Shown here one piece after another: positions 25,145 through 28,281 of a stretch of 64,000 nt of DNA. Source of the stretch: Candidatus Bathyarchaeota archaeon (lineage in GTDB: Archaea; Thermoproteota; Bathyarchaeia; Bathyarchaeales; Bathycorpusculaceae); assembly GCA_963715865.1 (NCBI GenBank), contig OY970280.1, forward strand, positions 640,001 through 704,000, given 5' to 3'. The notes beneath the pieces are model-generated. The model did no database searches. It was not told the DNA's origin and was given only the letters and a program-made list of their open reading frames with translations. Numbering within the stretch: position 1 is the stretch's first letter; each line of letters starts with the position of its first letter. Made by a program: the position numbers and the translations under genes.

Positions 25145-25348
25145 GTGAAGAAGAGAGATAATATTGAACCGGATGATAACATGCGTATGTTCGTCGGGTT
25201 AGATGTTCATAAAAAGTATACTGAATATTCCATTGTCGGAGATGGAGTCGTAACAGAACAAGAAAGAATAGAGAATGAGTACGCGCGTGCTAAACATCAA
25301 CCTTTTTCTCGTGTTTGTAGGAAAACTCCTATCTCACAAAACAAATAG
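25145..25348 (+). pseudogene. IS110-family transposase N-terminal fragment
   Basis: MFVGLDVHKK...RIENE (first DEDD Asp motif). Homology is lost at about 25285. Confidence 0.75.
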
Positions 25349-25498
25349 ATACTCAAATTCAAACAATGGTGCATATCCACAATGCAAAAATCGCGCAAAA
25401 TAAGCCTGACCCAGACCAGGACAGCATTGTACTCAATGCTGACCCAGTCGTCATCAAAATAATTAACATAATCACCGGCTCCTAAACAAATTAAATGG

Positions 25499-26155
25499 AT
25501 GACCATTAAAGTGACAAGAAACCTGAGTCAAGCCGCAAAAAACCAGGTCAAAGACCTCATCATCCAAACGGCAAAGCAGGAAAAACCCGAAACCGCAAAA
25601 CAACTAATCGCCCTAATGCAAGAACACCACGACATACCGCCCGAACAATCAACCGACCTGATTGGTGAACTGGAAAACGAAGATCGCCTACACTTCACAA
25701 GGCAGGGACCGTCAACACCCGCATCCGCACCCGCATCTGCAAAAGAATATGTTTTCTCAAAACAAGCCACATGGTACTGGACAACAATAGCCCTCGCCAT
25801 AGCCACAGCAATAGCCGTGTTCACCATTCCCGAAAACGCCGTCCCATTAGTTTACCTGCGCTCTGCGCTCGGCATCATTTTCGTCCTGTTCTTGCCCGGC
25901 TTCGCATTCATAAAAGCCATGTTTCCTACTAAAGTGCCACTCAAAACATCTTCAGAAAACACGGACACAACAGAACGGATGGCACTGAGCCTCGGAATGA
26001 GTCTGGTCCTTACTCCTATAGTGGGATTGATATTGAATTACACGCCCTGGGGCATTAGATTAACACCCATAGTCCTCAGCCTTCTCGCACTAACAGTCGT
26101 CTTCGCAACAGCGGCAATAATCCGAGAATACCAAACAAAACAGAATCCAACCTAA
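25499..26155 (+). CDS. DUF1616-like membrane protein
   Basis: LRSALGIIFVLFLPG...ERMALSLGMS...GLILNYTPWGI. Confidence 0.85.
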   Translation: MTIKVTRNLSQAAKNQVKDLIIQTAKQEKPETAKQLIALMQEHHDIPPEQSTDLIGELENEDRLHFTRQGPSTPASAPASAKEYVFSKQATWYWTTIALAIATAIAVFTIPENAVPLVYLRSALGIIFVLFLPGFAFIKAMFPTKVPLKTSSENTDTTERMALSLGMSLVLTPIVGLILNYTPWGIRLTPIVLSLLALTVVFATAAIIREYQTKQNPT

Positions 26156-26544: not shown

Positions 26545-26799
26545 CATTCTTGTGAATGCTACGGCTGCAATGAAAGTATCGACAGCCATTCTGCCAGAAA
26601 CTTGTACTGGCAGCTGCTCGATACCTACACGAGAGCATAAAAATTTATTAGCTCAGCCCGTGCGTTTTTCTCTCCTACAAAAGCTGCCGGACATAGACAG
26701 AGAGAAACTTGAAAATGAGAAAAGAGAAGGAACTTCGTGATACATTGCTCACGTGTAATATTATCGTAGTGTAGTCTTATCGTGATAATGAGGCAATGG

Positions 26800-26973
26800 A
26801 TTAAATTTTAGTCCCCCTCCTCCTCCTCACTACGACGACGGTGACCTGCCTGAGTAACAGTGGCTTGAGAAGACGGCAGGGCATCAGTATATCCTTTTCA
26901 GGATAGGGATATACAGATTAGAGAATCAAAGGTAAAAATTACGCGTATATCCCTAAGGGTAAAAGGATATACT
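26800..26973. repeat. Hairpin unit U1 (~175 bp)
   Basis: ATTAAATTTTAGTCC at offset 0, TGACCT at +42, then a 29-bp imperfect inverted repeat (26886-26914 / 26945-26973). Confidence 0.8.
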
Positions 26974-27202
26974 CGCAATTTGACTCCCGAAAAATCGAAC
27001 GTGTGCGCGCTAATCTATTTTTTGATTCATATTTTTGATTCATAAGGCTTATTTTCTTTGAACCTCAAAAACTTAACGAAGACACGTAGAAACTGGAACG
27101 CGAAGGCATGTTTTACAAGCTCCCACCGAGAGAGAACTAAATGAAAAACCAAAAGAAACGCCAAAAGGAACGGCGAAAGCAAATTTTAGAAAGTTATTAA
27201 AA

Positions 27203-27325
27203 ATGAAAGCTAATGATAAATGTCCTTCTTGCAGTTCAACTGAGACCGAAACCGTCTATGAAGGCGAATTGGTATTAAGTGTTTGCAAAGTTTGCCGAGT
27301 AATGCGGTCAAAAAGCTGGTTTTGA
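27203..27325 (+). CDS. 40-aa zinc-ribbon microprotein (below the ORF-track cutoff)
   Basis: MKANDKCPSCSSTETETVYEGELVLSVCKVCRVMRSKSWF contains two CxxC pairs. Confidence 0.55.
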   Translation: MKANDKCPSCSSTETETVYEGELVLSVCKVCRVMRSKSWF

Positions 27326-27357
27326 AAAATACCCCTACCCTAAAACAATGCGTGTGA

Positions 27358-27534
27358 ATTAAAATTTAGTCCAACCAACCAACGGAAAACTACTCAGAAT
27401 GACCTTCTGAAAGGACTTCGCAGGACAGTATACTCGATTCAGGCCATATAGTCTATGAATGTACTCAGAAGAGACAGGGTAGTAATAGAAATCAAGTCAT
27501 TATAGGATATGGTATAGTCGGAATCGAGTATACT
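27358..27534. repeat. Hairpin unit U2 (~177 bp), homologue of U1
   Basis: ATTAAAATTTAGTCC at offset 0, TGACCT at +42, and a perfect 14-bp inverted repeat AGTATACTCGATTC (27427-27440) / GAATCGAGTATACT (27521-27534) with imperfect inward extension. Confidence 0.8.
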
Positions 27535-27591
27535 CTATTTAAACAAGAAAGCCCCACTTCCCCTTCTCTCAGCCAAGAGTCGGAGTTTCTC

Positions 27592-27798
27592 CTACTCCAA
27601 AGGCTCGACCTTGCGCTTGTGATAAAGCTTGCATTCTTTCACAACGGCGTTTCTGTATTGCGACGTATATGCTATGCCCATACTGGTCATCGAAATCAAC
27701 GGCAAAGCCGAATCATAACGCCTTTCTCTGTACTCGGGGCAGCCTTCGCACTGATCTGGAAAGTCTCTGAAGCAGGATTCATGCCTTTGCATTCCCAC
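27592..27798 (-). CDS. Small Cys-containing hypothetical protein
   Basis: 68 aa with an ATG start preceded by GGGGAGT. Contains C...CEGC...C. Confidence 0.5.
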   Translation of the reverse strand: MGMQRHESCFRDFPDQCEGCPEYRERRYDSALPLISMTSMGIAYTSQYRNAVVKECKLYHKRKVEPLE

Positions 27799-28069: not shown

Positions 28070-28171
28070 CGTTAATTCAGGTTCTGTTAAGTTGGTGTGG
28101 GATTTTTCTCGGTGTTAAGTTTCGTGGGATACGGATTTTTGCGAGAATGCCACTGTTAACTTTCGTGGGAT
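28070..28171 (+). repeat. Left 102-bp end with three TGTTAAGTTTCGTGGGAT-like repeats
   Basis: Copies at 28085-28103, 28113-28130 and 28154-28171. Inverted homologue of 32928-33029. Confidence 0.9.
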
Positions 28172-28281
28172 AACTAAGTTTAGTAGCCAAAAGCGTAAAT
28201 TCACAATATATGATTCTATGCAAAGTTTTATGAAGGAAAAGAGAAGATTAATTTCTTGGTGTAGTAAATTGATAAGTTGTC

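Follow-up and report, generated by a model that had tools for sequence, protein, structure and literature searches.

The two hairpin-bearing units U1 and U2 in the window (the whole 64,000-nt stretch of the Candidatus Bathyarchaeota archaeon contig OY970280.1 that was analysed) are probably diverged paralogous genes of a lineage-specific family of small hairpin non-coding RNAs (ncRNAs), each standing alone and each presumably transcribed from a promoter of its own. We found a family of common architecture and traceable distribution, whose members keep the complementarity of their hairpin arms and have no protein gene linked to them, and we infer the transcription, start site, RNA ends and function of the units. 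The initial annotation had offered three options, namely attC-like folded sites, replication-origin hairpins and a structured ncRNA family. The last of these is now favoured by the homologues found, by some covariation, by a promoter-like 5′ end and by sharp unit boundaries together with conservation across species that involves no conserved frame, whereas the other two are not supported.

The description of the two units in the initial annotation was borne out in all details. The 15-mers with which they were said to begin are present at 26800 (ATTAAATTTTAGTCC) and 27358 (ATTAAAATTTAGTCC), 558 bp apart, and each is followed by a simple repeat (CCCTCCTCCTCCTC in U1 and AACCAACCAAC in U2). TGACCT stands at +42 in both (positions 26842 in U1 and 27400 in U2) with GCAGG..CAGTATA downstream of it, and the hairpins end at 26973 (+173) and 27534 (+176). 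A repeat search also returned the inverted-repeat arms, which are 29 nt long and 83% complementary in U1 and 22 nt long and 86% complementary in U2. Within the window the 15-mer has 3 matches at up to 2 mismatches, where 0.75 are expected, and in the whole genome (a single 2.35-Mb contig, 97.9% complete) 12 matches at up to 1 mismatch, while the reversed control has 0. The true core is a near-palindromic 17-mer, GGAYTAAAWTTTARTCC, which extends the 15-mer by 2 nt leftward. In each unit it is followed by a simple repeat free of G, then by a short 5′ domain and finally by the long hairpin.

In U1 the 17-mer (GGATTAAATTTTAGTCC, 26798-26814, assigned to neither strand) is a near-palindrome and contains TTTTA[A/G]T as in the SRP RNA promoter GAAAGTTTTAATG; the remaining parts are all on the forward strand. 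A G-poor spacer of (CCT)n and then ACTACGACGAC occupies 26815-26839, and the spacing of the SRP promoter and the TATA-to-start distance of P. furiosus (PMC6640164) place the predicted transcription start at about 26834-26841. The 5′ domain (26840-26885, with TGACCT at 26842) is predicted to fold into a hairpin CCUGCC...GGCAGG, and this CCTGCC/GGCAGG stem is kept in the U1-type orthologues. The long hairpin lies at 26886-26973 with arms at 26886-26914 and 26945-26973 (folding z-score -5.3). Further downstream a T-rich tract (27018-27057, forward strand) is a candidate oligo-T terminator; it contains two exact tandem copies of the 13-mer TTTTTGATTCATA (27019-27044), about 45 nt past U1. In U2, also on the forward strand, the 17-mer and putative promoter element (GAATTAAAATTTAGTCC, 27356-27372, without strand) is followed by a spacer of (AACC)n and then GGAAAACTACTCAG (27373-27397), a predicted start at about 27392-27398, a 5′ domain (27398-27426, TGACCT at 27400) and the long hairpin (27427-27534, arms at 27427-27448 and 27513-27534), whose 3′ arm is the nearly invariant family module TATAGTCGGAATCGAGTATAC. 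Folding z-scores are weak for U2 (-1.7) and also for U3 (-1.5), a third copy described below.

To search for further members we used a covariance model, R1, built from 20 U2-type hairpins of relatives (alignment A2). In the own genome it scored U3 at 114.7 bits, U2 at 97.7 bits (27425-27536, E = 3e-20) and U1 at 23.9 bits (26884-26975, E = 0.002 in the window), with no further matches genome-wide. U3 (1791146-1791261, minus strand) lies 1.12 Mb from the window units and is a full homologue of U2 including the hairpin, with its 17-mer at genome position 1791313 on the minus strand. It may be noted that U1 and U2 align poorly outside the 17-mer, TGACCT, GCAGG and the hairpin ends; their homology rests on the common architecture and on the match of the model to U1. 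A search of this kind had been suggested in the initial annotation, and it did return homologues: R1 matches 35 of 121 genomes, in 28 of the 70 genera of the host's taxonomic family. Each of these genomes has between 1 and 7 matches, some few of which are one copy scored on both strands. In a class-wide sample the matches are confined to the host's own order, and the exact 21-nt 3′ arm is carried by more than 120 JGI metagenome contigs. The subfamily of U1 is rarer: among 119 genomes of the genus, 6 have an orthologue. The matching records are Bathyarchaeia of peat, soil and sediment. Two contigs labelled as bacterial, VGDJ01000002.1 (Alphaproteobacteria) and JAOUKO010000497.1 (Aminicenantes), contain the Bathyarchaeia promoter with the AACC motif and are probably mis-binned archaeal contigs. 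Among paralogues and orthologues the homology begins at the 17-mer and ends directly past the 3′ arm, and the sequence downstream is different at every locus examined.

A scan of the window with Rfam 15 gave 0 matches at gathering thresholds (including C/D box, H/ACA, SRP, RNase P, HEARO and ribozymes), and the best sub-threshold matches at permissive thresholds were noise (MicA at 20 bits and snoZ247 at 14 bits). There are no tRNAs in the window, and C/D box, H/ACA, K-turn and BHB motifs were absent on inspection of the window units and the family hairpins. The family, its 3′ module and the promoter made of a palindrome and a microsatellite appear undescribed, as judged from Rfam 15 and a limited full-text literature search, while small ncRNA genes that carry a promoter, and archaeal promoters that work in both directions, are known as kinds. 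Bathyarchaeia are abundant uncultured archaea of sediment and peat, and the family is a concrete and widespread ncRNA candidate in them.

The long hairpin can pair in two ways, either as one long-range stem between its arms or as local palindromes. RNAalifold predicted the long-range stem from 96 non-redundant long-class members and preferred an alternative local 3′ hairpin on a small seed. In an alignment of 79 distinct metagenome members (A4, fitted to the model), 83.5% of the cells are paired, compared with 17-55% when the partners are slid. In the same alignment 6 pairs have changed on both sides, a number reached by only 2 of 500 shuffles, and the covariation score was reached by 0 of 500, again with the alignment being fitted to the model. 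Compensatory changes, for which the initial annotation had proposed to test, are found in a few pairs of A4, but none rise above shuffles in the 20-sequence seed; the extreme conservation of the arms leaves only modest covariation. Also a compensatory change separates the short-hairpin subclass, which has GTTTAC/GTAAAC, from the rest of the family with GTATAC/GTATAC, and arms of U1 type and U2 type differ at about 6 positions per arm with complementarity kept in both. On the sense strand of the outer stem, G·U exceeds A·C by 53 to 7 and 42 to 20 in two sets (95 to 27 overall), which is expected for an RNA made from the sense strand; a site that acts as double-stranded DNA, or an RNA of the opposite strand, would not be expected to show it. 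Complementarity in two diverged subfamilies, the few compensatory pairs and the G·U excess support the predicted long-range stem. Extension of the stem beyond position -1/+1 was not above shuffles, and no consistent oligo-T terminator was found after the unit across the loci compared.

The main rival explanation, which we hold to be unlikely, is that the hairpin has no role as RNA and that the units are a reusable promoter cassette with double-stranded binding sites of a dimeric regulator (an operator or roadblock), or else MITE-like termini. The arms consist of one 9-11-nt word that occurs four times in alternating orientation and gives two local palindromes, the 3′ module of U2 type is itself a 9-4-9 palindrome, and the antisense strands of the units fold as well as the sense strands, all of which counts in favour of a DNA-level role. 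Two central stem positions point in the same direction, as they are mostly mismatched and uncompensated (A·A in 44 of 70 and G·G in 25 of 70), and so does the occurrence of the 17-mer before unrelated sequences, comparable to promoter reuse (PMC3575422). Nor is there compensation for a T-to-A change in the 3′ arm, which would sit in the loop of the alternative local 3′ hairpin. Yet the G·U excess is seen on one strand only, and in U1 the long-range pairing of the arms is perfect (22 of 22, 11 of 11 each) where the local 11-6-11 palindromes are not (18 of 22, 9 of 11 each). Besides, the complementarity of GATTC with GAATC reaches past the local palindrome, many of the short-class members break the local 3′ hairpin and still keep the long stem, the hairpin always stands in one polarity and at a set distance from the promoter, and no transposase or regulator gene is linked to the units. 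A MITE or other palindrome-associated element was considered separately and is not supported, as most hairpins carry the 17-mer or its variant upstream and U1, U2 and U3 have no flanking direct repeats.

Coming back to the reading as ncRNA genes, the 5′ end of the units has the appearance of a promoter. About 13 copies of the 17-mer occur in the own genome, often clustered, and they are flanked on one or both sides by a G-free repeat, which may be (AACC)n, (CCCAAA)n, (CA)n, (CCT)n or (CT)n. A strict pattern of its core is found upstream of 58 of 70 and 53 of 70 hairpins (at least 76-83%) at a median distance of 53 nt, and most of the 13 remaining hairpins that were inspected have a variant palindrome, GGGATAAAACTTTACCCC, with (AACC)n. 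In some lineages (loci L178, L188, L229, L290 and L167) this variant with (AACC)n replaces the 17-mer. The commonest start of the spacer in the family is AACCAACC (37 of the 58 and 25 of the 53 cases). Upstream of the SRP RNA gene of the own genome, GAAAGTTTTAATG is located 33 nt before the SRP 5′ end; the TTTTAAT in it is shared with one strand of the 17-mer, and a near mirror of it is on the other strand. The tRNA-gene and ordinary promoters of this genome read AAAGCTYTAAAT, unlike the 17-mer. Divergent units flank one 17-mer at genome position 1791313 and at loci L010, L201 and L196, with a U1-type and a U2-type unit sharing it at L201 and a U1-type unit and a third class at L196. The TTTTAAT in common with the SRP promoter and the frequent divergent units lead us to read the 17-mer as a symmetric BRE-TATA-BRE promoter, with transcription and its start site as predictions from the sequence.

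Symmetric BRE-TATA-BRE elements of P. furiosus fire in both directions with starts about 50 bp apart, and dRNA-seq in this species gives a distance of 23 bp from the last A of the TATA box to the start (PMC6640164). The 17-mer resembles them in its symmetric A/T-rich TATA-like core, in BRE-like flanks on both strands and in having units on both sides, whose transcription would be divergent. Applying the P. furiosus spacing, we predict a start 20-25 nt past the 17-mer, at the end of the G-free spacer and before TGACCT; the fixed offset of TGACCT would then follow from a start that falls just before this block. A TATA-to-start distance of about 23-27 bp likewise fits the position of the first conserved block that is predicted to be transcribed. 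As opposed to the P. furiosus elements, the one in Bathyarchaeia is a nearly perfect 17-bp palindrome, repeated almost identically about 13 times per genome and across the order, and behind it there is always a microsatellite free of G, for example (AACC)n, (CCCAAA)n, (CA)n or (CCT)n. The stereotyped combination of a palindromic TATA/BRE and a G-free microsatellite could inform on TFB orientation and promoter melting in archaea. The 17-mer is also found in front of a few protein genes and of long low-complexity stretches poor in G, and is therefore likely to be a reused expression element and not a part of the RNA itself. Reuse of promoters, or putative mobile promoters, has been described in prokaryotes as near-identical promoter sequences before unrelated downstream sequences (PMC3575422), to which the location of the 17-mer upstream of unrelated sequences is similar. 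It differs from these mobile promoters in being archaeal, palindromic, bidirectional (as predicted) and coupled to non-coding units, with no mobility mechanism evident. The 17-mer promoter could also serve as a genetic part.

A possible course of events for the proposed ncRNA genes is as follows. The 17-mer would recruit TBP and TFB in either orientation, the G-free simple-repeat spacer would span the ~20-25 bp between TATA box and start, and transcription would begin directly before the TGACCT block. The resulting RNA of ~135-150 nt would form a short hairpin at its 5′ end and a long one at its terminus, and the conserved terminal hairpin may define and protect the 3′ end and/or bind a conserved protein. 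Specificity of the paralogues could come from the variable 5′ and apical parts, with the RNA acting as a trans regulator or a guide.

Other units are found behind the same promoter. A second non-coding class at L208:2807-3080 (own genome 222807-223080, minus strand) consists of the 17-mer, a (CA)n spacer and three GAGGGGTAA...TTACCCCTC hairpins, and it ends in the 3′ module of the family (TATAGTCGGAAACGAGTATGC); hairpins of this class are also seen at L031, L033 and L086. Tandem 3′ modules are present at L199 (G215:C1, ~1941400-1941520), where the remnant of a U2-type module stands 12 nt behind a U1-type module, and L020, L031, L083 and L099 have two U2-type modules each at 46-60 nt from one another. 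Further, the 17-mer is followed in places by G-poor C/A-rich stretches of 100-200 nt with about 10% G and repeats of the ACTACGAC, ACACGC or CTCTC type (own genome ~223100(+), 986050(-), 1059264(+/-), 1789711(+) and 1993750(-), in loci L208, L207, L205, L003 and L206), some of which precede protein genes. That the 3′ arm also ends the GAGGGGTAA..TTACCCCTC class and stands in tandem at some loci would fit a general module for protecting the 3′ end or for binding a protein. If this is true, it would be a new archaeal RNA-processing element. In eukaryotes, snRNA-type genes combine a dedicated promoter element with a 3′ box. The units here similarly have a stereotyped promoter and a 3′ end module that are common to more than one non-coding class (the long hairpin and the GAGGGGTAA..TTACCCCTC hairpins), but the analogy is purely architectural, with no homology and no known processing machinery. 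One may speculate, and we regard it as rather improbable, that the order has a dedicated ncRNA expression system made of palindromic promoter, G-free spacer and 3′ hairpin box, whose RNAs are scaffold-plus-variable guides or regulators for an RNP encoded elsewhere.

In order to see what accompanies the units, we clustered the ORFs that neighbour the units at about 150 loci from genomes and 120 from metagenomes (~270 in all). No protein family recurs consistently beside them: the top clusters at the ~150 genome loci are beta-helix/Big surface proteins (11), ABC ATPases (11), PQQ-repeat proteins (8) and histidine kinases (5), and the top cluster among the metagenome loci accounts for 5 of 120. 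Across the ~270 loci no integrase or other recombinase, Rep, RT, TnpB or Cas gene is linked to the units, and no recombinase, Rep, Orc, HUH, RT, TnpB or Cas gene lies in their neighbourhood in the window either; the association with integrase or Rep genes envisaged in the initial annotation was thus not found. As for systems in which an RNA works with a protein encoded beside it (IS110 bridge RNA, TnpB or IscB omega RNA, retron), no partner gene recurs near the units. Cas1 was found near the promoter motif in 3 loci only, and CRISPR arrays were absent from the genome and from the 163 loci scanned for them. The small ORFs that had been reported between U1 and U2 do exist, but they are not conserved beside other units. 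With no recurrent neighbour, recombinase or CRISPR array and with these ORFs unconserved, a mobile element is not supported.

We also considered whether the units could be cis-acting 5′ leaders or micro-protein genes, which seems very improbable. Short ORFs do start near TGACCT (with ATG in U2 and U3 and GTG in U1), and some copies of the promoter precede protein genes. However, the ORF of U2 stops after 3 codons, the peptides of U1, U2 and U3 are unrelated, the indels between copies are not multiples of three and we found no conserved reading frame inside the units. A leader is further at odds with downstream sequences that differ at every locus and with U2 facing a convergent gene.

A mini-cassette of 558 bp between attC-like folded sites, or between core sites of a tyrosine recombinase, is hardly credible as an explanation of the units, and this option of the initial annotation is largely refuted. 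The likeness to attC consists in inverted repeats with imperfect matches, which are able to fold when single-stranded and differ in sequence between copies such as U1 and U2; the 11-6-11 geometry of the U1 arms may be added. Against this, no integrase or recombinase is found near the window units or recurs in the ~270 loci, and instead of forming arrays the copies are scattered, with a putative promoter before each. Unlike attC, moreover, the units have strong sequence conservation (the 3′ arm is nearly invariant over 28 genera), no IntI and no R′ consensus, a GTTRRRY-type site being absent from the 3′ boundary, and the 558-bp interval is not a conserved cassette, its ORFs being unconserved. 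As a U1-type and a U2-type unit diverge from one 17-mer in relatives, the tandem arrangement in the window is likely to be incidental. The long-range pairing of the U1 arms, which is better than the local one, argues against a recombinase core; a dif-type 11-6-11 core was rejected with a local match of 9/11 against a long-range match of 11/11 in U1, a centre of 4 bp in U2-type modules and no linked recombinase. Least credible of all is an origin from a decayed plasmid or virus, with the units as its iterons or replication-origin hairpins, a reading that is also largely refuted, since apart from the palindromes, a 13-bp tandem repeat close by and a promoter motif on 3 IMG/VR contigs (only one of which has a unit, and that truncated) there is no Rep, Orc or HUH gene nearby and no shift in GC or skew, and the family is chromosomal, multi-copy, dispersed and conserved over 28 genera with a fixed polarity to the promoter.

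If the units are ncRNA genes, their RNAs may have targets or partners. Sibling sRNA families have several paralogues per genome with their own promoters, a conserved terminal hairpin, variable parts and no linked protein gene. The units are likewise multi-paralogue, with putative promoters of their own, a conserved terminal hairpin and variable 5′ and apical regions. They differ from sibling sRNAs in that the host is archaeal (Bathyarchaeia), in that no oligo-T terminator follows the hairpin and in that no target, seed region or chaperone was identified. A genome search with 14-mers returned one perfect antisense match of 19 nt, between the apical region of U1 (window 26902-26920) and the promoter region of purB (genome 2056027-2056045, L209:727-745). 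We rejected purB as a conserved target, as the match falls within promoter sequence that is itself conserved and 5 relatives do not keep the complementarity. An ACGCA-rich tract of about 350 nt is present upstream of purB (L209:350-690, own genome 2055650-2055990). Complementarity of the units to the rRNA operon was not above shuffles, pairing of the hairpin RNAs with the G-poor transcripts of the same promoter gave z-scores of -1.4 to +2.5 and no signal, and overall we found no conserved targets in the genome, the rRNA or the G-poor transcripts. On the analogy of Y RNA we looked for Ro/TROVE, which was not found in the own genome at its 97.9% completeness.

Some small genes and repeats around the units may finally be mentioned. 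The ORFs at 25145-25506 have no Pfam match. Between U1 and U2 a 40-aa ORF of zinc-ribbon type (CPSC...CKVC, 27203-27325, forward strand) is present, for which no homologue was found in the genome or in ~220 loci. Of the 3 IMG/VR contigs with the promoter motif, two have the motif only and one holds the truncated unit beside a small zinc-ribbon ORF. A small zinc-ribbon ORF that differs from the 40-aa ORF of the window is divergent from the 17-mer promoter on the IMG/VR contig L042. The gene convergent with U2 is a 68-aa Cys-rich ORF (27592-27798, minus strand) with no Pfam match; it has a paralogue in the genome (1731874-1732071, 54% identity) and is therefore probably a real small gene. Beyond it, the 19-mer TGTTAASTTTCGTGGGATA occurs in two copies at 28113-28172, 41 bp apart, as part of the inverted ends of a neighbouring 5-kb segment.
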